Shown here: in pieces, positions 1,776-43,671 of the stretch | How the letters are laid out: the number at the start of each line of letters is the position of its first letter | How positions within the stretch are numbered: position 1 is the stretch's first letter | Source: Candidatus Amesbacteria bacterium GW2011_GWC1_47_15 | Lineage (GTDB): Bacteria > Patescibacteriota > Microgenomatia > CAZETR01 > Amesbacteraceae | Direction of reading: 5' to 3' | NCBI GenBank assembly: GCA_001001375.1 | Contig: LCNU01000015.1 | Location: 1 to 60,290, forward strand | Length of the DNA stretch: 60,290 bases | Translations under genes and position numbers: made by a program | The notes under the pieces: generated by a model | What the model was told of the DNA's origin: nothing | The model's database searches: none | What the model saw: only the letters and a program-made list of their open reading frames with translations

Positions 1776-4754
1776 ATGCCTGCCATAAAAAATATCTTAA
1801 GTTCGCTTCAAAGGCGGGTTTCCGGGCTTCGGGTAAAATACAAAGCGGCTCCCCCTGCAATGCAGATGCTGGGAGTGATACTGATGCTTTTGGGAATTGT
1901 GGGCGGAGTATGGGGAGTCAGAGAAGGATATAAATGGTTGTCCAGGGCAGCAGGTGAGACCGCAAGAATCTATTTTGAACCGGCGACGGCAACATTCCCT
2001 CCAAACCAGACGATGAAAATGATGATCGACTCCGGTACTACGGGCATAGGTTTTGTAAAAGCGGTCGTCACATTTAACCCCGCCAAAGTCAAACTGACCG
2101 GGGAAATTACCACATCCGACAAGCTGAAGACTGTGGTGGAAAAGACAAGTATGGCGACAGCTAACAGCACAGGCCAGATAACAATAGTATTGGGGCTGCT
2201 GCCGGCGGACAGCCTGAATCCTCCTATGGGAATATTTGAAATTGCACAGCTGCCTTTCGGTGCGGCAACTACTACCGCCAACCAGACGGATACGTTGGCT
2301 TTCCAGACAGCTTCCATGGAAATGTGGTCCTATCCGGGCAACGCGGCGGTGGCTATTACGGGTACCAACTCAACGGTATCCGTTAACCCTTCCGCAGGCG
2401 GAGTCAATTTCCACATGACTCCAAGCACTTTCACCCTGCCTCCCAGCCAGACTATGAAGCTGATGCTGAATGCCGGAATAAATAAGATAGGATTCGTGAG
2501 TGTCAATCTGACATTTGATCCTACCAAAGTCAGACTTGCGGGAGAAATAACAGCAGGTACAAGTCTGGGTACGGTGGTGGAGAAGACCAGCATGGCTACA
2601 GCAAACAGCACCGGAAGGATCTCACTGGTCCTGGCTTTGGCGACGGTTGACCGGGATTTTCCGCCCACCGGAGATTTTGAGCTGGCTTCGATTCCTCTTG
2701 CAGCGTTCGGGACAGGTTCCAACTTGACAACCACATTTAGCGTAGACCCGGCCGGGATGGAAGTGTGGTCATATCCGGAACAGCAATCTCTGAGCTTTAC
2801 CCATACAGGGGCAACTATCACGGTGAACCCTGTAAATATTACCGCTACTCCCACCCCCATATCTTCCTGCCAGACCGGCCAACCCAATTTCACGGTAACG
2901 AATACCTGCACCGGCACTACATTATCCAACAGAATAACGTGGTCCACTTTTCCCTCATCGTGTGGATTTGATACGTACCCCATTCAAAGGTGCCTGGGTA
3001 ATAACTGCACGCCCGATTTTTTTGTGAACATGTCCCCAGCCAGCACCCAGCTTACGGATAACAACGTAGAATACGGCAAGGTGTATGGATATAGGATGAG
3101 AGCATACGATATTGAAACACAGACTTATTCAGGCTATACCCCCACCTTATACGTAACTGCAAACTGCGCTATTCCGACGCCTACCCCGCTACCGCCTGCC
3201 GGGGGGAGATTGATAACAAACCTCATTGCCAACGATACGGCAGAAGCAATTGAATGGTCCGTCCGACAAAATCTGCAGCAAAACGATTTTATGTACGGTG
3301 ACCGGCCGTATATTTTCCAGAACCTGTCCCAGACGCTTTTGGGTAGGGAGTGGATCCGACCGGCACAAAAATCGTGGACTTCAACTTTGTCCACACTGGC
3401 AAGTTTCCAGGTCACGGCCAACTCCACGGTTTATGTCCTGTTTGACGACAGGTTCACCACAAAGCCTTCATGGATGAACACCTGGCAGGATACAGGAGTA
3501 AACGTAAGTGGTTTGGACCCAGTCGGCATCGGAAGTGATCCAATCGGAACTTCCAACTTGGCCACGTTTAGCGTTTATTCCAAACAATACGCTACGGGGC
3601 AAACGGTCCTATTGGGCAGCATTGGTGATATAAACACCGGGTGGATGTACGTCGCCATAGCGCGTGCCGATGCGGTGTCACCGACTGTTACCCCAACCCG
3701 CACACCCACCCCGATTGCCAGCCCTACCCGTACTCCAACACCGTTTAATACTCCTACCAGGACGCCGACACCTTCACTACAGAAATCTGGTTATATAAAA
3801 GTGATTCAGGACAGCGTGGACCATACGGTGGGAGAATTATTCTCGGTGGCGATCAGCATTAATACAGGCGGCAGGGCGATATCATCCGTCACATGGAGGA
3901 TCAGCTATCCGTACAGCGGCACTACACCCGAATTGAACGTGGTAGACCCAATAGGAACACAGGCCACCCAGATTGTACCCCTAACGCCGTTTACCGGGGC
4001 TACAGACTGGACATTTTCCGTCAACTCAGTCAGTAGAGCAAACGGCCAGGTGACAATTGATTTCGCAGCCGTCAATACATCCACAGCGGGGTATACGTCA
4101 AATGTTGATGTACCAATGGCACGGATTTACTTCAAAGCGAACAGGCTTCCCGCGGTCAACCCCACTCAGCTGACTTTTGATCCCCTGCAGACCAAAATGC
4201 TTTCCAAAACCACTCCGCTGACAGATATTCTGGCGGCATACCAGAACTTCACAATCAGAATAACTTCATCCAGCCTAATGTTCTCGGCCCAATTGCAGGG
4301 AGTGACCAAGCCCTTCGTAACCAAAAGTGCACTGCTGACTTTGAGCAGCGGAGGCTCGGATCTGAATTACAACGTATCCGTGGTTAGCGACAGTGCCGGA
4401 ATTTTCAGGCCAAGCGCACCTGTGGAGCTGAACGGAGTCAACGGAGGCCAGTCGTATGATGTATATCTGAAGCCGGAAGGGTATCTGCGCCGTAAGCTGG
4501 GGACAATTACCATCCAGGCAGGCACTAATACATTGGCACTGGCGAACCAGGAAGTACTGGCGGGAGATTTTGACGGCAATAATATCCTCAACATTCTGGA
4601 TATAGGAAAGATCCTGTCCGTATACACTGAATTGAGTGTGCCCGTAACAACCGCTACCCGCATCTATGATATCGACATCAGCGATGATATAAATATTACA
4701 GACGTGGCTATAGTGCTGATTAACTACACGGCACTACAGATATACGGTGACTAA
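1776..4754 (+). CDS. large surface protein: N-terminal TM helix, duplicated cohesin-like modules, Cys-rich FN3-like module, putative sugar-binding beta-sandwich, PT linkers, cohesin-like module, C-terminal dockerin
   Basis: 992-aa ORF.
- Dockerin-type double Ca-loop: GDFDGNNILNILDIGKIL and YDIDISDDINITDVAIVL.
- PT linker: TPTRTPTPIASPTRTPTPFNTPTRTPTP.
- Internal duplication: aa 66-205 and 211-352. Confidence 0.85.
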   Translation: MPAIKNILSSLQRRVSGLRVKYKAAPPAMQMLGVILMLLGIVGGVWGVREGYKWLSRAAGETARIYFEPATATFPPNQTMKMMIDSGTTGIGFVKAVVTFNPAKVKLTGEITTSDKLKTVVEKTSMATANSTGQITIVLGLLPADSLNPPMGIFEIAQLPFGAATTTANQTDTLAFQTASMEMWSYPGNAAVAITGTNSTVSVNPSAGGVNFHMTPSTFTLPPSQTMKLMLNAGINKIGFVSVNLTFDPTKVRLAGEITAGTSLGTVVEKTSMATANSTGRISLVLALATVDRDFPPTGDFELASIPLAAFGTGSNLTTTFSVDPAGMEVWSYPEQQSLSFTHTGATITVNPVNITATPTPISSCQTGQPNFTVTNTCTGTTLSNRITWSTFPSSCGFDTYPIQRCLGNNCTPDFFVNMSPASTQLTDNNVEYGKVYGYRMRAYDIETQTYSGYTPTLYVTANCAIPTPTPLPPAGGRLITNLIANDTAEAIEWSVRQNLQQNDFMYGDRPYIFQNLSQTLLGREWIRPAQKSWTSTLSTLASFQVTANSTVYVLFDDRFTTKPSWMNTWQDTGVNVSGLDPVGIGSDPIGTSNLATFSVYSKQYATGQTVLLGSIGDINTGWMYVAIARADAVSPTVTPTRTPTPIASPTRTPTPFNTPTRTPTPSLQKSGYIKVIQDSVDHTVGELFSVAISINTGGRAISSVTWRISYPYSGTTPELNVVDPIGTQATQIVPLTPFTGATDWTFSVNSVSRANGQVTIDFAAVNTSTAGYTSNVDVPMARIYFKANRLPAVNPTQLTFDPLQTKMLSKTTPLTDILAAYQNFTIRITSSSLMFSAQLQGVTKPFVTKSALLTLSSGGSDLNYNVSVVSDSAGIFRPSAPVELNGVNGGQSYDVYLKPEGYLRRKLGTITIQAGTNTLALANQEVLAGDFDGNNILNILDIGKILSVYTELSVPVTTATRIYDIDISDDINITDVAIVLINYTALQIYGD
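1971..2831 (+). repeat. tandem duplication of a ~140-aa module inside the 992-aa ORF (1971..2390 and 2406..2831)
   Basis: Shared protein blocks: FPPNQTMKMMIDSG / LPPSQTMKLMLNAG, VVEKTSMATANSTGQITIVLG / VVEKTSMATANSTGRISLVLA, MEMWSYP / MEVWSYP. Confidence 0.85.
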
Positions 4755-5352
4755 AAATAGTATGAAATTAATATTAGTACTTGTCGGAGTTATATCGGTA
4801 GCAGGTTTGTGGCTGGTAAGCCGCAGCAGCGTGGTACAAAATAAGACGGAAGAACCGGCTACGATGAATGCGAACCCGTCTCCGGAACCGATTCCGGTAT
4901 CCGAACCCAGAGATGCTGCGGCGGGGGAGACAGCGGCGTTTGAGATAAAACTTAATGCCAAAGGGAAGAATATTGCAGCCTTGGCTACCCGGTTGACCTA
5001 CCGGTTTGAAGGAACCAATCCGTTTAAAGTGATTGATGCTTCTACCAAGAAAGAAGGATTACAACTTCAATCGAGTGCCCAGTTGCAGGAAGCCGGGTGG
5101 GCGTTTCCGGTTAACAAGGTGTATGTGGATCAGGAGCAAAATATGTTAATAGTGGATTTTTCGGCAGTCAATCTGACGCCGGAAGGATATGTAGCCGCAG
5201 GGGAGGAGACAGTAGGCACAGTCCAGCTGCAGGTTCTAAGGGACGTATCGGGAGTAGTGTTTGTGCCGGATCCGGAGCAGACGAAAGTGATAACAAAACA
5301 GGGGGAAGAACTCACGCTGGAAAACAAACCGGGAGTGCTCTGGGTAAAATAA
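4747..5352 (+). CDS. membrane-anchored cohesin-like domain protein
   Basis: 201-aa ORF overlapping the upstream stop by 8 nt. It has an N-terminal TM helix followed by a beta-sandwich-type sequence (AAFEIKLNAKGKNIAALATRLTYRF...). Confidence 0.7.
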   Translation: MTKNSMKLILVLVGVISVAGLWLVSRSSVVQNKTEEPATMNANPSPEPIPVSEPRDAAAGETAAFEIKLNAKGKNIAALATRLTYRFEGTNPFKVIDASTKKEGLQLQSSAQLQEAGWAFPVNKVYVDQEQNMLIVDFSAVNLTPEGYVAAGEETVGTVQLQVLRDVSGVVFVPDPEQTKVITKQGEELTLENKPGVLWVK

Positions 5353-5368
5353 CCAGGCTTTTATAAAA

Positions 5369-6262
5369 ATGACGGAAATACCATCCAAAAAGTGGGCGCT
5401 TTTAATTGGAGTAGGAGTATTGGTGGTGGGTTTGATCGTCGGAGTGGTGCTGGTGATGCAGCGACAGCTATTTGGCAAAAAAGCTGCTGTACCCACCGGA
5501 TCAACTACAGTTTCGATAAGTCCAGCACAAGCAAATATCCCGGTGGGACAGTCACAGACAGTCACGGTTTACATCAATCCATCAGGCATCCCGATATCGG
5601 CCGTTGCCGTCCGGCTTAAGTATAATTTTTCGGGTGCATCACCGGAAGCGACGGTAGCTGATATCCAGATGGATTCTTTTTTAATCGCTGAAGAAGACTG
5701 GAATTGTCCAATCAAAACCTCAAGCATTACCGGCAATCAGGTATCAATTGACATTGCCTGTATAAATTCGGATACTTCCGGCTTTGTCTCTACCTATGAG
5801 TTTCCAATGGCGAGTTTTGTTCTGAACGCGGGCAGCGTGCCGGGAATAAATCCGGTCGTGGTGACCTTTGACGAGGTGCAGAGCGCTATTACCCGAAAAT
5901 CAGACGGAGAGGATATATTGCTGACGCCTTCGGCAACAGGGCAGTATACGATTATGAGCGATAGTGTACCGACACAGACTCCTACAAGAACACCAACACC
6001 GTCTGCCGTGCTATCACCGACACCTACAACCGTGCCTGATGATGACAACGACACAGTGACTCCCACTCCAACCCCGACTCCAGGCTCCGGGGCTACTGAT
6101 TCAACAACAAATACGACGACCACGACGACCTCATCGACGACAAGTAACGGGGGAGGAGATCAGGGTCAACTCTTGACAACGGGTTTCAGTCTGCCGACCA
6201 TATTAATTACGGCAGCGGGGATTCTGGCTTTCGGATGGGGTGGGGTACTGCTTCTAAGGTAA
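5369..6262 (+). CDS. cohesin-like domain protein with PT/T-rich linker and C-terminal hydrophobic anchor
   Basis: 297-aa ORF with an N-terminal TM helix, a cohesin-like module and the linker PTQTPTRTPTPSAVLSPTPTT...TTTTTTSSTTS. The C-terminus is SLPTILITAAGILAFGWGGVLLLR. Confidence 0.75.
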   Translation: MTEIPSKKWALLIGVGVLVVGLIVGVVLVMQRQLFGKKAAVPTGSTTVSISPAQANIPVGQSQTVTVYINPSGIPISAVAVRLKYNFSGASPEATVADIQMDSFLIAEEDWNCPIKTSSITGNQVSIDIACINSDTSGFVSTYEFPMASFVLNAGSVPGINPVVVTFDEVQSAITRKSDGEDILLTPSATGQYTIMSDSVPTQTPTRTPTPSAVLSPTPTTVPDDDNDTVTPTPTPTPGSGATDSTTNTTTTTTSSTTSNGGGDQGQLLTTGFSLPTILITAAGILAFGWGGVLLLR

Positions 6263-11947: not shown

Positions 11948-12019
11948 AGCCGGCGGGGAGTTTTGCAATCCCGACCTTGGCTTTACAAAAGCCCTGCTCT
12001 GCTTCTGAGCTACGCCGGC
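11948..12019 (-). tRNA. tRNA-Thr (anticodon UGU), atypical D and T loops
   Basis: Acceptor GCCGGCG/CGCCGGC, D stem GCTC/GAGC, anticodon stem GGGCT/AGCC(A) with loop TTTGTAA. The D loop AGAAGCA lacks GG. The T arm GGGAT-TGCAAAA-CTCCC lacks TPsiC and the G53-C61 pair. Confidence 0.6.
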
Positions 12020-31705: not shown

Positions 31706-32302
31706 TTGATGAGAAGGGGATTGTTTATTGTCCTATACGGACCTGCTGGTGTGGGGAAGACCCAGCAGCTGGAGATATTGGAAGATACCATGGCGAGAAT
31801 GGGCGTGCATGTGCGGCGGATTAAATACCCGCTCTACCGGTTGGAGCCGACAGGACCGAAGTTGTACGGAATTCTGCATAGGAAGGAGATAGCACCGGAT
31901 GAAGATGAAATGCAAAAAATGTTTGCCCAAAACAGGAATGATTTCGAGCCTACCTTGAGATCATGGCTGGATTCCGGTGTGACCGTACTGGCCGAAGACT
32001 ATAAAGGGACAGGCGTAGCCTGGGGAATGGTAAGGGGACTCCCGCTTGAAAAGATGGAAGAGCTAAACGATGACCAAACCCAGCCGGATCTGGCTATATA
32101 TTTAGACGGACCCCGGCGGATGGAAAGCCCTTTGGAGCCGCACATGTATGAGGATGAAGAGGAATGGTATAAGGTGCGCAAGGTCATGCTGCAGTTGGCG
32201 GACCGCTACGGGTGGATACGGGTGGGGGGAGATGCGCCTATTCTGACCGTGGCAGGGAGAATTTTTGCCGTGGTCAAACCCCTGGTGACGGTGATGAGAT
32301 AG
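31706..32302 (+). CDS. thymidylate-kinase-family P-loop nucleotide kinase
   Basis: 198-aa ORF. It has LFIVLYGPAGVGKTQ (P-loop) and a DxxGxxxW / PDLxxYLD layout like Tmk-type kinases. Substrate not determinable. Confidence 0.7.
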   Translation: MMRRGLFIVLYGPAGVGKTQQLEILEDTMARMGVHVRRIKYPLYRLEPTGPKLYGILHRKEIAPDEDEMQKMFAQNRNDFEPTLRSWLDSGVTVLAEDYKGTGVAWGMVRGLPLEKMEELNDDQTQPDLAIYLDGPRRMESPLEPHMYEDEEEWYKVRKVMLQLADRYGWIRVGGDAPILTVAGRIFAVVKPLVTVMR

Positions 32303-33197: not shown

Positions 33198-33830
33198 ATG
33201 CCTGCCATCGAACAGGAGATTAGAGTAAACGGTAAACTAATGGTGGCGCATTTTGTACCCGGTTATACGGAAGAGAGAAACCTGCTGTATGACCAAAAGG
33301 TAGTTCCCAAAGAGGAGTTGGCTGGATGGGGTGAGGCATTGAAAAGAAGACACAGGAAAAAAGTCTTTACAACCGGGGCGTATGATGTGATTCATTTGGG
33401 ACACATCCGTTATCTGCAGCTAGCCGCCAGCCTGGGAGACGATTTGATGGTAGGCCTTAATAGCGACTCCTCGGTACGGACATATAAAGGCGAGGGTAGG
33501 CCGGTTCAGGAGGAGACGGAAAGAGCCGAATTATTGTGCGGATTGACTTGTGTAGGATTTATCACAATATTCGACGAATTAACCGGTGCGGAAACGATTA
33601 GGTTGTTCAGACCTGACGTTTACTTGTGTGTGGAAGGAAGTTGGGAAGGGGATTTGGGATCTAAGGAAGAAGTGATTGCAATGGAGGAAGTAGGAGGGGA
33701 AGTGTGGTGCTGCCCCAGGCAAGGGCCGACAATCTCTACAACTGCAATTATCGAAAGGATAGAGAGAAAGTATGGTGAAAGAATCATGGGTGATTTCAAA
33801 CAACTGATTCAAGGTGATAAACATGAATGA
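33198..33830 (+). CDS. cytidylyltransferase-family nucleotidyltransferase (RfaE domain II / TagD-like)
   Basis: FTTGAYDVIHLGHIRYL is the (H/T)xGH nucleotidyltransferase signature. There is an N-terminal ~55-aa extension. Confidence 0.8.
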   Translation: MPAIEQEIRVNGKLMVAHFVPGYTEERNLLYDQKVVPKEELAGWGEALKRRHRKKVFTTGAYDVIHLGHIRYLQLAASLGDDLMVGLNSDSSVRTYKGEGRPVQEETERAELLCGLTCVGFITIFDELTGAETIRLFRPDVYLCVEGSWEGDLGSKEEVIAMEEVGGEVWCCPRQGPTISTTAIIERIERKYGERIMGDFKQLIQGDKHE

Positions 33831-34311
33831 AAAAGACGATTTTTCCACAGATAATCAATTAAATTTGAGATTGAGGGGCGGATATGAAAAATTGGCTGAA
33901 AAAATCCTGAAAAATGGCTGCCCGTTTTGCAATTTGAAGGAAAAATATATTTTGGCCGAAAAGGACGGGCTGGTATTAACTGTAAATATTTTTCCTTATA
34001 TTGACGGGCAACTGATGGTAATACCACGCAGACATATAAAGAGTTTTGAAGAAGTGACGGTAGAAGAGACGGTTACCAATTATTTCCTTTCACAATTAGC
34101 AATAACCTTATTAAGAGAAGAACTGGGAGTAAAGGGGGTGTGGATGCTGCTGCGGGATGGGGGGTTAGGCAGCGAATCAGGCAAGACGGTGGAGCATTTG
34201 CACTGGAATATTCTGCCTTATACAGACAGCCTTAATACCTGGCATCATCAGGAGCTCAGTGTTACTCCGGCGGAGATGGCAGTAAGGCTCAGGAGTAAAA
34301 TAGACAAATGA
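33814..34311 (+). CDS. HIT-superfamily protein with variant triad HLHWN
   Basis: 165-aa ORF. FCNL...IFPYIDGQLMVIPRRH...VEHLHWNILP fits a HIT/GalT-like layout. It overlaps its neighbours, consistent with translational coupling. Confidence 0.7.
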   Translation: MINMNEKDDFSTDNQLNLRLRGGYEKLAEKILKNGCPFCNLKEKYILAEKDGLVLTVNIFPYIDGQLMVIPRRHIKSFEEVTVEETVTNYFLSQLAITLLREELGVKGVWMLLRDGGLGSESGKTVEHLHWNILPYTDSLNTWHHQELSVTPAEMAVRLRSKIDK

Positions 34312-35084
34312 AAAATCAGGAATATCTGGTAATAGACGAGTCGGAGATATCGTGCAAGAATCTGCCCCGGATAGCGGAGGCGGTGGCCCAGGCCAGGCTG
34401 GGAATGGTGCTGGTAATGCCGGTATGGCAATTGCGGGAGGGTCTTCGGGGCTTTGCCAAAGCCCAAATAATTCGGGCGATTCATCCGGAAATTGTCCAAA
34501 CCTTGGGAATGGGTGAACAGCAATTGCAGGCATTGATCCGGAGGGAATCAGGAGTGTTCCGAATGGGACCACTGCACAAAACAAACGAAAGGTGTTTTGG
34601 AGTCGGGATTTCTAAACATAATCCGGAAATACAAGAAACGGATTTACCCCAAGATCGTAGATGGATGAAAAAAGCAAAAGAGTTGATCGATAAAAGCAAC
34701 TGCTGGTACTTTCCGACTGCATGCGTATTCGTGAGAAACGGGCGGGTGGCATGTGAAGGAGTGTCTACCTCTTACAATCACTCGGAATGTAAAAAAATCC
34801 CCATGTCGTTTACGGACCTTAAGCTTAACGATGGCGAACGATTGATATTTTGTGATTCCCAGCATGCAGAACAGCAGGGGGTTTCGGCCGCAGCCGCCAG
34901 GGGAGTTAGCCTGGAAGGGACGACAATGTACCTGCAGAAATTTCCCTGCCGGCCCTGCATGCAAGCTTTAATAGGTGCAGGGGTAAAGCGAATGGTTTAT
35001 GAGATCGGGTCGTACGGTTTGCCGGACTTGCCGCTACTGCTGAAAAACGGGATTGAGGTACAGAAATTGACACGGCAAGTTTAA
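34308..35084 (+). CDS. deoxycytidylate (CMP/dCMP) deaminase-family zinc enzyme with ~120-aa N-terminal extension
   Basis: The C-terminal half has CDSQHAEQQ (H-A-E) and PCRPCMQAL (PCxxC). The N-terminal 120 aa have no recognisable motif. Confidence 0.8.
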   Translation: MKNQEYLVIDESEISCKNLPRIAEAVAQARLGMVLVMPVWQLREGLRGFAKAQIIRAIHPEIVQTLGMGEQQLQALIRRESGVFRMGPLHKTNERCFGVGISKHNPEIQETDLPQDRRWMKKAKELIDKSNCWYFPTACVFVRNGRVACEGVSTSYNHSECKKIPMSFTDLKLNDGERLIFCDSQHAEQQGVSAAAARGVSLEGTTMYLQKFPCRPCMQALIGAGVKRMVYEIGSYGLPDLPLLLKNGIEVQKLTRQV

Positions 35085-35917
35085 AGGGCGACCGGTATCT
35101 TCATTGCAGGGTGGGCTTGATAATCGTGAAGCTGGAAATCTTCCACCCGGTGGTCGAAGATGGTGCCGGAGGGGGAATCAGATATAGTCACACGGGGTCT
35201 GGGGTAAGGTTTCCTTTTTAATAATTCTTTCATAGCGGGTATTTGGAATTCGTAGACGTGAGGAAGGTGAAAGTTTATTGCAAGTTCACCGGGCGGAAGA
35301 CTCAATTCCTTGGCAAACATCATCAGCCAAAGCGCGTGTTGGGCAGTGTCGAAGGGAACGCCAACGCCTATATCGGCACTTCGCTGGTCATAACCCAGGT
35401 TGAGTTTTCCATCAAGGACGACAAAATGCAGATCCAATATGCAGGGCGCGACATCGACCACATTGGTGCAGTCGGGGTTCACCACGTCACCCAGGTTCCA
35501 ATAACTGATAACTGCCTTTCTGGTCCGGGGATCCTTTTTAAGCATATCCAGTACCCGGACAAGCTGGTCGGTTTTTCCGGCAAAATTTCTTAACTGGTAG
35601 CCGTAAGTAGGACCGAGTTCTCCGTTTTTGTACCCCAATTTTTCTTCAGCCGCCTTAGCCCATTTTAGCCAGAGTTTGGAACCATAATTATTAAGCAGAT
35701 CGTATGCATTTGTACTTCCGGACATGATCCACAATTTCTCAGCGACCAATGTGGGCCATGCCTGGCTCATATCCCGGGTAGTGATTAAAGGAAAACCATC
35801 TTCCAAGTTATAACGGACAGTACGAAAAAAAGCATCAATTGATTTTTCCGGTTTTTGGCTCTCACGGTATTTGCCATTAGTGAGTACATCTTCCACCAAG
35901 TCCAGATACTCAATCAT
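35081..35917 (-). CDS. thymidylate synthase (ThyA)-fold enzyme with Asp at the Asn177-equivalent position; predicted (d)CMP methylase/hydroxymethylase
   Basis: 278-aa ORF aligning without gaps to E. coli ThyA in the core. Conserved blocks are DGFPLITTR, LWLKWA, GPTYGYQ, DPRTRK, APC (Cys159), QRSAD and HVY. PFD(190)TAQHAL replaces PFN(177)IASYAL. Confidence 0.9.
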   Translation of the reverse strand: MIEYLDLVEDVLTNGKYRESQKPEKSIDAFFRTVRYNLEDGFPLITTRDMSQAWPTLVAEKLWIMSGSTNAYDLLNNYGSKLWLKWAKAAEEKLGYKNGELGPTYGYQLRNFAGKTDQLVRVLDMLKKDPRTRKAVISYWNLGDVVNPDCTNVVDVAPCILDLHFVVLDGKLNLGYDQRSADIGVGVPFDTAQHALWLMMFAKELSLPPGELAINFHLPHVYEFQIPAMKELLKRKPYPRPRVTISDSPSGTIFDHRVEDFQLHDYQAHPAMKIPVAL

Positions 35918-35992
35918 GAAAGCATATTAAACGCAATAAAAGGAAATAGTCAAGGGATGTATAATCAGCTCCATGGCGGAGGATGAATAGAT

Positions 35993-36232
35993 ATGAGCAG
36001 AGAGCTGGAGTTTAATATTTACAGGCGAGCGATGGGGATAAGATGGCAAGATGATTTAAAACTCGTGGGGCAACTGACGGAAGATTTTTATTTTAAGCAA
36101 AAAAAACGTGGTATTAATATCCCGCAGCCTACGATCATTCTGGGAGCAGATTTGACAGAGTGGGAAATCAGAGCGAAGGGGTCTGCAATGATGAGTGCAA
36201 ACAAGGTAAAAGCGTGGGGGATTAAGGTATAA
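35993..36232 (+). CDS. hypothetical small protein
   Basis: 79-aa ORF between the ThyA-like gene and glyA. Confidence 0.4.
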
Positions 36233-36233
36233 T

Positions 36234-37367
36234 TTGGGGATGGCGAAGCAAAAAAGGGACAAAACATTTGAATTGATCGAAAAAGAGACACAGCGGCAAA
36301 ACGATACTTTGCAAATGATTCCCAGCGAAAATTACGCTTCAGCGGCCGTACGTGAAGCGATGGGAAGTGTATTTACGAATAAATATGCCGAGGGGTATCC
36401 GGGAAAGAGATATTACCAGGGAAACGAAGTAGTGGACGAATTGGAGAATCTTTGCCGTGAGAGTGGGAAGCCAGCATTACCGGTGAGTACCGCAAGACTG
36501 TGCATTATTTTCTGGACCAAAATGGGGAAGTAGATTGGGAGCAGCTGTACCGGCTGGCGCGGGAGCACAAACCCAAACTAATTTGGTCGGGAGGGACGGG
36601 TTACACCAGGATTTTCCAGTGGGAAAAATATGCCCGGATAGCAGATGAAATCGGGGCGTATTTTGTGGCGGACATTTCCCACATCGGCGGATTGGTTGCC
36701 GGAGGAGTTCATCCGTCACCTGTGCCGTTTGCGCATGTGAGAAAAGGGGAAGAAAAAAGATAGCGAGTTGGAGAGCAAGATAGACAAGGCTGTTTTTCCC
36801 GGAGTACAAGGAGGGCCGCATATGGAAAACATCGCCGCTTTGACCATAGCACTCACAGAAGCCAGCACTCCCGGGTTTGGAACATACGCCAAACAAATAG
36901 TGATAAATGCAAAAGCCCTGGCGACGTATTTATCATTTAACAATTATCATTTGATCGGCGGAGGGACGGAAAACCATATGATCTGGATTGATCTGACGAA
37001 TAAGGGGATTGACGGATGGAGCGCGGCGTGGGCTTTGGAATACGCCGGGATAATTGCCAACAGACAGACAGTGCCGGGGGAGAAAAGATCCCCATATTAT
37101 CCTTCCGGGCTGCGTCTGGGGACGCCGGCAGTAACGACCAGGGGAATGAAAGAGGGGGAAATGCTGTTGATAGCGCAGTGGATAAATAACGTTATATCCA
37201 ATCTTCAATATTCAATGTCCAATAAATATAAAGATATCGGGAGCGATGATAAAAAGAAGGATCAGGTGGCCAGAAAACATTTTAAGCTGGAGATGAAAGA
37301 GGATAAGAAACTGCTTGAGACCGCGGGGGAAGTAAAGGAATTGTGCCGGAAGTTTCCTGTAAAATAG
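36234..37367 (+). pseudogene. glyA: serine hydroxymethyltransferase broken into three frames with two internal segments missing
   Basis: Track ORFs 36234..36533, 36500..36763 and 36768..37367 carry N-terminal, middle and C-terminal SHMT sequence (IPSENYAS...YPGKRYYQG; HKPKLIWSGGTGY...ADISHIGGLVAGGVHPSP; KIDKAVFPGVQGGPHM...). The segment after ENLCRE is absent (~55 aa), and so is the PLP-lysine block (TTTTHKTLRGPRGG). Confidence 0.85.
37197..37223. repeat. CAAT-heptad element inside the glyA C-terminal fragment
   Basis: TCCAATC TTCAATA TTCAATG TCCAAT. It contains the same 12-mer and 11-mer found in topA. Confidence 0.85.
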
Positions 37368-37371
37368 ATGC

Positions 37372-38148
37372 ATGGTAATAATCTTTGACGGGAGAACCTT
37401 TGCGGATAAAGTGTCGGAAAGCATCGGAATCAAGGTTAGAGGGTTGAAGCTGGTATCGATATTCGACCCGGATAATCCCGGGAGTGTGGCATATACAAAG
37501 ATAAAAGAGAAAAAAGCGGGAGAACTCGGGGTAGATTTTGAAAAAATTCAAAAAACTAATGATAAAGAACTGATCAAAAATAAAATTCATGATCTAAATG
37601 CCGATAAAGATGTAAACGGGATAATCGTGCAGATGCCTCTGGGATTCGGGGATGAGGATATGGAAATTGCCGGAATTATAAGCCCGAAAAAGGATGTGGA
37701 CGGACTCAATCCTTATTCCGGAGTGATGCCGGCAACGGTTCGCGCCGTCACGGAAATTTTAAATTCTATTAACGAGGCCCCAGATTCCAGACAAAAATTA
37801 TGTGTCTTAGGAAATTTGGGAATGGTCGGCCGGAGAATGCAGGAAGAGCTGGAAAATACGGGCAAATACGATGTTGAGGGGATGGATAAAGAGGATTTTG
37901 ATCCCGAAAAGATCCGGGAAGCGGACATCGTGATCAGCGCAACCGGACAGGCGGGACTTATAAAGCCAGAAATGGTGAAAGCGGGTGTAATTGCTATAGA
38001 TGTAGGCTTCCCGGTGGGTGATTTCGACCCGGCAATTGCTCAAAAAGCGGCATTTTTTACCCCGGTCCCGGGAGGAGTGGGACCGGTGACGGTGGCGATG
38101 CTGTTTGCCAACCTGGCTGAACTTATTTCAAAGAGAATTAAAAACTGA
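37372..38148 (+). CDS. folD: bifunctional methylene-THF dehydrogenase / methenyl-THF cyclohydrolase
   Basis: 258-aa ORF with YTKIKEKKAGELG, GIIVQMPL, DVDGLNP and PVPGGVGPVTVAML. Confidence 0.9.
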   Translation: MVIIFDGRTFADKVSESIGIKVRGLKLVSIFDPDNPGSVAYTKIKEKKAGELGVDFEKIQKTNDKELIKNKIHDLNADKDVNGIIVQMPLGFGDEDMEIAGIISPKKDVDGLNPYSGVMPATVRAVTEILNSINEAPDSRQKLCVLGNLGMVGRRMQEELENTGKYDVEGMDKEDFDPEKIREADIVISATGQAGLIKPEMVKAGVIAIDVGFPVGDFDPAIAQKAAFFTPVPGGVGPVTVAMLFANLAELISKRIKN

Positions 38149-42599: not shown

Positions 42600-43671
42600 A
42601 TGCCGACGTGGCTGATTTTTATCATTTTATTGTCTATTCTGGTACTGGTCCACGAACTGGGCCATTTCCTGGCCGCCAGAATATTGGGGATTAAGGTAGA
42701 AGAGTTTGCACTCGGGCTGCCTTTTACCAAACCGCTGGTAAAAATACAAAGGGGAGAGATCCAGTACGCAGTATACCCTGTTTTTTTCGGCGGTTTCGTA
42801 AAGCTTTACGGAGAAGATAAGGAACCGGAGGGGGTCAAGGCGGATAAAAAAGATATCGGCCGTGATTTCTGGAGCAGGGGAAAAAAACAACGCATTGTGG
42901 TGATAGCGGCCGGAGTAGTAATGAATGTGGTATTGGCGGTGGGGGGATTTGTTTTGCTTTATTCCGTAGTGGGGGTGCCGCGTAAAACCATACAAAAAGT
43001 AACTGTAGCCGGGGTGGAAATGGATTCTCCTGCACAGGAGGCTGGGATAACAGAAAACGACCGTGAATCTGACTTTGGAAAGAGGCAGCGGCACCCCACT
43101 ATTTGAGGGAATTGTGGAAGGAGAGATTCAAAGGCAAATATTAAGCGTTGTCCCCCGTAAGAATCCTCCGGAGGGAAAAGGGGCACTGGGAGTGATGATT
43201 TCAGCCTATCCGTATCTGACTACAGAGAAATGTTCAATGACCAATGTCCAATGTTCTATAGGCGCATTGGAGCAAGGATTTAAAAGTACAAAAATTTGGA
43301 TAGATCGTGTATTTGAAGGCTTGAGAGGCATAGGCGGGAGCCTGGTACGGGGGAAAGCGCCGGAAGGGGTATCCGGACCTTTCGGTATTTATCAGCTGAC
43401 CGACACGGTAGCGGCTTACGGCTGGCTGCCGATACTGGAGCTTCTGGCTATTCTGTCCATCAACCTGGCGGTTTTTAATATCCTGCCAATACCGGCACTG
43501 GATGGGGGAAGAATGTTTTTTGTCGGACTGGAGTGGCTGATGCAAAAGAGAATTCCTGCAGAAACAGAGCAAAAAATAAATTCCTGGGGAATGGCGTTTC
43601 TGATTACACTGATGGTACTGGTATCCCTTCAGGATGTGATCCGGCTAGGGGTAATGGAAAGAATTTTTTAA
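42600..43671 (+). pseudogene. rseP: RseP-type M50 site-2 protease split by a frameshift inside the PDZ domain
   Basis: Track ORFs 42600..43106 (HELGHFLAA...SPAQEAGITENDR) and 43063..43671 (VNLTLERGSG...NILPIPALDGGRMFF). The junction near 43060-43064 lacks the middle of the PDZ domain and changes frame. Confidence 0.8.
43231..43257. repeat. CAAT-heptad element inside rseP
   Basis: TGTTCAA TGACCAA TGTCCAA TGTTCT. It contains CAATGTCCAAT (43242-43252). Confidence 0.85.

Follow-up and report, generated by a model that had tools for sequence, protein, structure and literature searches.

In the textbook cellular pathways, thymidylate (deoxythymidine monophosphate, dTMP) is made from deoxyuridine monophosphate (dUMP) by ThyA or ThyX. 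Replacement of one pyrimidine-specificity residue, Asn177 in E. coli ThyA, by Asp turns the thymidylate synthases (TS) of L. casei and E. coli into methylases of deoxycytidine monophosphate (dCMP), and Asp is found at this position in natural users of cytosine nucleotides, namely the T4 dCMP hydroxymethylase (CH, gp42; Asp179), MilA (Asp186) and BcmA (PMC8670742; PMC5175136). In phage metagenomes, the two positions that best separate cytosine-modifying TS homologues from canonical ones are 177 and 147 (PMC8670742). Five of seven metagenomic Asp177 homologues tested, together with the Xp12 enzyme, made 5-methyldeoxycytidine (5mdC) in vivo, and on phage contigs predicted to have modified cytosine 70% of the dCMP-deaminase genes were ≤3 kb from a TS homologue, mostly predicted makers of modified cytosine; the authors proposed that deoxythymidine (dT) nucleotides arise by deamination of 5mdC nucleotides, with conventional TS bypassed (bioRxiv 10.1101/2024.12.05.627091). 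The XP-12 deaminase converts 5mdC triphosphate to dT triphosphate (PMC12088426). Both the Asp177 type of dCMP methylase and the idea of obtaining dT from 5mdC nucleotides are therefore already known from phages. Here the thyA gene of Candidatus Amesbacteria bacterium GW2011_GWC1_47_15, an ultra-small groundwater bacterium of the Candidate Phyla Radiation (CPR, or Patescibacteria), was analyzed together with its neighbors; the whole stretch analyzed (GenBank assembly GCA_001001375.1, contig LCNU01000015.1, positions 1 to 60,290; 60,290 nt) is called the window. The gene encodes the Asp form and lies tail to tail with the gene of a dCMP-deaminase-family protein. What is new is that a cellular lineage has the Asp form as its own conserved thyA, and that Asn and Asp toggle naturally at this position.

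The Amesbacteria TS is of ThyA type over its full length. Pfam family PF00303 (Thymidylat_synt) spans residues 3–277 (E = 8.6e-66), and HMMER searches of Protein Data Bank (PDB) sequences returned canonical ThyA of E. coli, Elizabethkingia and other solved structures at E = 1e-45 to 1e-47, with full-length identities of 35–37%. The AlphaFold model, calculated with 32 clade sequences, had a pLDDT of 96.3 and matched E. coli TS with template modeling (TM) scores of 0.89–0.94 (Foldseek); the L. casei N229D-dCMP complex (1NJC) was among its structural matches. An earlier note on this DNA, made from the letters alone, had aligned the active-site core to E. coli ThyA without gaps, and the HMMER alignment indeed contains no gap between the catalytic Cys and the C-terminal end. 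Every active-site residue listed in that note was seen in the alignment, including the catalytic Cys (Cys159, within an A-P-C motif), the R-S-x-D block and H-x-Y. In E. coli numbering, the retained ThyA residues are E58, W80, W83, Y94, R126, C146, Q165, R166, S167, D169, H207, Y209 and the C-terminal PVA(L/I).

Canonical ThyA (EC 2.1.1.45) has Asn at position 177, and the Amesbacteria TS has Asp190. The segment G-V-P-F-D190 stands opposite the E. coli G-L-P-F-N177 in the HMMER alignment and in the same column of a MAFFT alignment with 120 homologues. The structural alignment agreed, as the earlier note had read it, and no alternative Asn was placed opposite the pyrimidine by HMMER, MAFFT or the AlphaFold model. 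Three further substitutions relative to E. coli ThyA were found with MAFFT (R21 to Q, R127 to K and H147 to I), the last of which is Ile160. Asp190 and Ile160 fit the residue signature of the Xp12-type dCMP 5-methyltransferase, Asp at 177 and usually a residue other than His at 147. From the canonical set of phosphate-binding arginines (R21, R166, R126′ and R127′), R166 and R126 are kept, and a conserved R/K18 and K/Q22 near the lost R21 in the clade might substitute for it. Relative to canonical ThyA, the enzyme thus shares the fold, the catalytic Cys, the folate-side residues, the C-terminal tail and the logic of an operon with folate enzymes, but differs in Asn177, His147 and the clade-wide loss of R21. 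The L. casei N229D and E. coli N177D mutants carry the same substitution on a canonical scaffold; unlike these engineered proteins, the Amesbacteria enzyme is natural, is under purifying selection and carries H147I, R21Q and R127K in addition.

The Asp was retained well beyond this assembly. For the 12 other full-length members of the protein cluster, all from independent assemblies, 1–5 substitutions were found, mostly conservative (I136V, F216Y, I274V, N98D and others), and Cys159 and Asp190 were present in all 12. A further ~45 CPR homologues with 37–64% identity to the TS also have Asp (MAFFT). Homologues were sought among 5.8 billion proteins with a word index and, exhaustively with HMMER, among 1.8 billion cluster representatives; both searches returned a small family above ~190 bits, below which scores were at the level of ordinary ThyA. 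Where members are named, they come from CPR lineages (Amesbacteria, Woesebacteria, Jorgensenbacteria and Colwellbacteria), and the best phage relatives are ≤37% identical and annotated as ordinary TS. The family is monophyletic in a neighbor-joining tree and has the loss of Arg21 as its hallmark; position 177 is Asp in almost all members, and position 147 is Ile or Val in most. An Asp in thyA is a clade-wide feature of these CPR bacteria. The earlier note had considered such an enzyme unusual in the chromosomal thyA slot of a bacterium; the chromosomal setting stands, with housekeeping genes all around, but the gene is not a single oddity.

A nested group within the family (P0031, P0036, P0037 and the TS of loci L005 and L164) has Asn177 and His147. 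Since these Asn members are interleaved with Asp members in the tree, at least two switches have occurred at position 177. The closest such pair, P0031 (Asn) and P0032 (Asp), is 81% identical and has the same gene neighborhood. A residue other than His at position 147 was found in 55 of 72 Asp177 proteins versus 14 of 191 Asn177 proteins (odds ratio 41, not corrected for phylogeny), and within the CPR clade His147 was retained by the Asn members and lost in deep Asp lineages. One Asp-type sub-clade (P0034, P0040–P0048, P0121, P0250 and locus L086) also has Arg166 changed to Gly, with two of the four canonical arginines gone.

To predict the reaction, base, sugar and transferred group were considered separately. 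For the base, the Asp points to cytosine, and the dCMP-substrate interpretation of the earlier note is supported, as a prediction, by the alignments and the structure model. For the sugar, the ribose preference of MilA depends on Ala176 and Lys133′, and users of deoxyribonucleotides have Ser and Arg instead (PMC5175136). The Amesbacteria TS has Ser180 (equivalent to Ser167) and Arg133 (equivalent to Arg126′), which argue for a deoxyribonucleotide substrate, dCMP and not CMP. An assignment to the CMP hydroxymethylases of the MilA/BcmA type was rejected on these two residues and on the end of the protein at residue 278, without the extra C-terminal helical domain of MilA. For the transferred group, T4 CH lacks the last ~27 TS residues, which close over the folate, and hydroxymethylases release tetrahydrofolate (THF) and hence need no dihydrofolate reductase (DHFR) (PMC5175136). 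The Amesbacteria TS has the complete tail, ending in PVAL and aligned to the last residue of E. coli TS. This tail, and the DHFR gene beside the orthologue in relatives, argue for a methylase that produces dihydrofolate (DHF) rather than for a hydroxymethylase. Taken together, the three criteria make dCMP + 5,10-methylene-THF (CH2-THF) → 5-methyl-dCMP + DHF the most likely chemistry. The prediction in the earlier note of a methylase or hydroxymethylase acting on (d)CMP is thereby narrowed to dCMP and to methyl transfer.

The genomic setting is that of a bacterial chromosome and not of a phage with 5-methylcytosine (5mC) in its DNA: the window carries topA, tmk, rpsB, tsf, frr, mreB, a penicillin-binding protein gene, tgt, queA, dnaX, recR, cysS and four tRNA genes. 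The TS and deaminase genes are convergent, and their stop codons overlap on a common TTAA (35081–35084). The deaminase gene closes an operon that begins with a nucleotidyltransferase and a HIT-family gene, linked through overlapping start and stop codons (33198–35084). The C-terminal domain of the deaminase is closest to the dCMP deaminases of S. mutans, cyanophage S-TIM5, T4 and human, both in sequence and in fold. Its N-terminal ~115 residues (34308–34650) gave no match in Pfam, in PDB sequences or with Foldseek, from a model of moderate quality. Clade deaminases have two unrelated types of N-terminal part, and the type found in Parcubacteria carries a V-I-H-x-G-Y motif reminiscent of nucleotidyltransferases.

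Gene neighborhoods were read for 11 clade loci (L001–L005, L085–L088, L091 and L164). Two of these came from wider searches. A profile-pattern search of genome contigs with the clade alignment worked with generic peptide patterns and yielded 80 loci, 79 of them ordinary thyA and one a clade locus (L005, Colwellbacteria). A degenerate-DNA motif scan of metagenome contigs yielded mostly non-clade TS and one new clade locus (L164), and the rest served as background. The nucleotidyltransferase, the HIT protein and a deaminase of ~260–280 aa were beside the TS in all 11 loci, and this operon next to thyA spans Microgenomates and Parcubacteria. DHFR adjoined or overlapped the TS gene in eight, including Asp-type orthologues (L001, L002, L003, L085 and L086) and orthologues 45–64% identical to the Amesbacteria TS. 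Serine hydroxymethyltransferase (SHMT), FolD or Tmk was nearby in 6/11. Among the ~109 non-clade TS loci of the background, DHFR was adjacent in 55 and a deaminase in very few. The 4-nt overlap of TS and deaminase genes recurs at L002, L085, L088 and L091, and at L001 the overlap is 20 nt. At L085 (Woesebacteria), a 718-aa fusion of deoxynucleoside kinase and thymidine kinase (TK) is encoded (3273–5429), and formiminotransferase-cyclodeaminase genes (1856–3256) replace SHMT and FolD, a different one-carbon supply with the same Asp-type TS.

The likeness to the Xp12-type and metagenomic Asp177 phage methyltransferases lies in the signature and in the gene context: Asp177, a residue other than His at 147, a TS-like length, and a gene of the dCMP-deaminase family no more than a few kb away, for which thymine formation through deamination of a 5-methylcytosine nucleotide was proposed. 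The Amesbacteria enzyme differs in being encoded on a cellular chromosome (beside rpsB, tsf, frr, topA, tmk and tRNA genes), as the resident thyA of a bacterial clade, with SHMT, FolD and, in relatives, DHFR as neighbors. Since the locus combines the phage enzyme pair with the dTMP module of a cell, a methylate-then-deaminate route is proposed. The best reading, to which we give about an even chance, is that dCMP is converted by the Asp-type TS to 5-methyl-dCMP and then by the adjacent deaminase to dTMP, so that the route of 5mC phages such as Xp12 would have a housekeeping counterpart in a cell. The TS would bind dCMP, Cys159 would attack C6, and Asp190 would hydrogen-bond to or protonate N3 and accept a hydrogen bond from the 4-amino group. 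The methylene group would come from CH2-THF, supplied through SHMT and FolD, and reduction by hydride would give 5-methyl-dCMP and DHF. The deaminase encoded tail to tail would convert the 5-methylcytosine nucleotide, putatively at the monophosphate level, to the thymine nucleotide, which Tmk would take to dTDP. Overall, dCMP would become dTMP without passing through dUMP, methylation preceding deamination instead of following it. The position of the TS in a dTMP-synthesis operon beside a dCMP deaminase means that the end product is probably still dTMP and not modified DNA. We speculate that the nucleotidyltransferase and the HIT protein turn (d)CTP into a lower phosphate form for the deaminase and the TS, like the MazG-like pyrophosphatases of phage clusters.

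If the deaminase accepted both dCMP and 5-methyl-dCMP, the two steps would commute, and toggling between Asn and Asp would be expected, as both orders give dTMP. One A↔G substitution in codon 177 would then reorder the pathway and leave its product unchanged. A different explanation draws its main argument from this toggling too: the enzyme would be an ordinary TS converting dUMP to dTMP, or a dual dUMP/dCMP enzyme, whose protonated Asp reads uracil as Asn would and whose dUMP is supplied by the deaminase. This is a possible but rather unlikely account. Asn and Asp orthologues up to 81% identical occur in the same operon, and for this reason dUMP use by the Asp form may persist. The remaining catalytic residues are all canonical, the public annotation is thymidylate synthase, and the TS passes the cut-off of the NCBIfam equivalog TIGR03284 (180.8 vs 108.35), but it falls below the cut-off in six of seven ThyA-type equivalogs of NCBIfam (PRK01827/PRK13821-type; e.g. 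196.5 vs 327). Against this account, Asn-to-Asp replacement shifted the preference to dCMP in both TS enzymes in which it was tried (PMC8670742; PMC5175136), and cytosine nucleotides are the substrates of every characterized natural Asp family member. That old Asp lineages have lost His147 in a correlated manner also suggests adaptation to a different base. Several observations nevertheless weigh against the methylate-then-deaminate route. Two of the seven phage Asp177 enzymes tested made no 5mdC (bioRxiv 10.1101/2024.12.05.627091). The deaminase accompanies both Asn and Asp forms, in gene arrangements that are alike for the two, and is for this reason not specific evidence for the Asp route. 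A comparison of ten deaminase sequences gave no robust signal of residues tracking the Asn or Asp state of the TS, the sole hint being an aromatic residue close to where T4 has Tyr153. A dUTPase gene, found in one of the 11 clade loci (L086, Asp-type with Arg166 changed to Gly, with tmk also in the cluster), fits a route through dUMP equally well. DHFR was absent from the window and from the Amesbacteria sibling loci, and the DHFR of a relative used as query gave no named Amesbacteria match among its best 120 matches; the Amesbacteria small open reading frame (ORF) sits where relatives have DHFR.

The absence of DHFR beside the Amesbacteria TS would be explained by a dCMP hydroxymethylase like T4 gp42, releasing 5-hydroxymethyl-dCMP and THF, and Asp at the specificity position would fit it. 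This is highly improbable, as the ~27-residue C-terminal segment missing from T4 CH is retained, DHFR adjoins or overlaps the TS gene in the orthologues at 45–64% identity, and the protein is much closer to canonical TS than to gp42 (23% identity over 155 aa, E = 2e-5); an assignment to the gp42 type was rejected on the remote similarity and on the tail. Another reading would have 5-methyl-dCMP phosphorylated and built into DNA, so that 5mC would enter at the nucleotide level and partly or fully replace cytosine, as in phage Xp12. The signature of Asp177, non-His147 and an adjacent deaminase is common to this TS and to phages with 5mC genomes, and no feature in the window contradicts such a use. 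It is nonetheless improbable: the gene is the sole TS of the window and sits in a housekeeping dTMP module with Tmk, close Asn relatives have the same operon, and no enzyme excluding dCTP and no dedicated deoxynucleoside monophosphate kinase was recognized. Incorporation of 5mC at the nucleotide level is not known from any cellular organism. A mixed use, in which members of the clade would spend 5-methyl-dCMP both on dTMP and on DNA synthesis and so have chromosomal 5mC from the nucleotide pool, in part or wholly in place of cytosine, is about as improbable. Decay of the TS gene, or an Asp produced by assembly error, would match the interrupted appearance of glyA next door, and of peptidase M50 and mreB in the window, but has a negligible probability. 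The TS region is free of gaps relative to a sibling assembly, the Asp is retained across independent assemblies and the clade, and the glyA breaks are confined to the assembly of the window, with siblings 99.8–100% identical carrying an intact 444-aa SHMT. A glyA pseudogene was rejected on the same comparison: the window lacks segments of 75, 148 and 59 nt, at 36018/36019, 36462/36463 and 36739/36740, that are present in those siblings, and the TS gene is untouched. The missing 148 and 59 nt put glyA into three frames, and the 75-nt gap makes the small ORF 79 aa instead of 104. The breaks in the window look like silently closed scaffold gaps and not like pseudogenes.

Features of the TS locus are listed in Table 1. 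The promoter-like site upstream of the TS gene is weak, and the regional count of such sites was not above that in shuffled sequence. A second ThyA, a ThyX motif, TK and PyrG were looked for, and none was found in the 60-kb window (the ThyX query sequence was approximate). Peptidase M50 (two ORFs, 42600–43671) and mreB (24901, starting at profile position 49) are interrupted similarly to glyA, and in sibling assemblies the M50 gene has one 383-aa product. GC skew was uniformly positive, at ~+0.2 per 2-kb window over positions 12000–60290, and most genes are on the plus strand. The fourth tRNA gene (11948–12019, minus strand) was found with Rfam at 48.9 bits and was not reported by ARAGORN.

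Table 1. Features of the thyA locus, with positions counted from the first letter of the window
Feature	Position	Strand	Remarks	Basis
Thymidylate kinase (Tmk)	31706..32302	+		
Cytidylyl/adenylyl-transferase-like protein (RfaE domain II-like)	33198..33830	+	Opens the nucleotidyltransferase-HIT-deaminase operon	
HIT-family protein	33814..34311	+	Weak match to ATP adenylyltransferase; 4-nt overlap with the deaminase start	
Deaminase, 258 aa, two domains	34308..35084	+	Residues 1–115 without match; residues 118–258 zinc dCMP-deaminase (HAE ... PCRPC)	
TS gene, ThyA-fold, 278 aa	35081..35917	-	Identical to KKU63953.1; predicted CH2-THF-dependent dCMP C5-methylase	Pfam, HMMER, MAFFT, AlphaFold
Asp190 codon (GAC)	35348..35350	-	Equivalent of E. 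coli Asn177 (pyrimidine-specificity residue)	HMMER, MAFFT alignments
Cys159 and Ile160 codons	35438..35443	-	Catalytic Cys159 (TGC, 35441-35443, equivalent of Cys146); Ile160 (ATA, equivalent of His147, second specificity-linked position)	
Promoter-like site TTGACT-18-TAATAT	35924..35953	-	Directly upstream of the TS start codon	
Small ORF between thyA and glyA	35993-36232		No family match; 79 aa in the window, 104 aa in sibling assemblies (L092 6611-6925)	
glyA (SHMT)	36234..37367	+	Three out-of-frame pieces in the window; intact, 444 aa, in sibling assemblies	
folD (methylene-THF dehydrogenase/cyclohydrolase)	37372..38148	+		

In the literature, no report of an Asp-variant ThyA in CPR bacteria was found, and a Patescibacteria paper that mentions thymidylate synthase treats thyA as ordinary. 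The annotation of these proteins as 'thymidylate synthase' may assign the wrong reaction in metabolic reconstructions of CPR bacteria. Natural orthologue pairs that are ~80% identical and differ at Asn/Asp177 offer a system for the reordering of pathway steps by one nucleotide change, and the deaminases encoded beside them might provide new enzymes active on 5mC, like those now employed in methylation sequencing. With 5-methyl-dC nucleotides in the pool, one would also have to ask whether the cell prevents their incorporation into DNA, and by what means. If the proposed pathway is true, it would be a third cellular route to dTMP, free of dUMP, and a trick that phages use for DNA modification would serve as housekeeping metabolism across a large radiation of bacteria.

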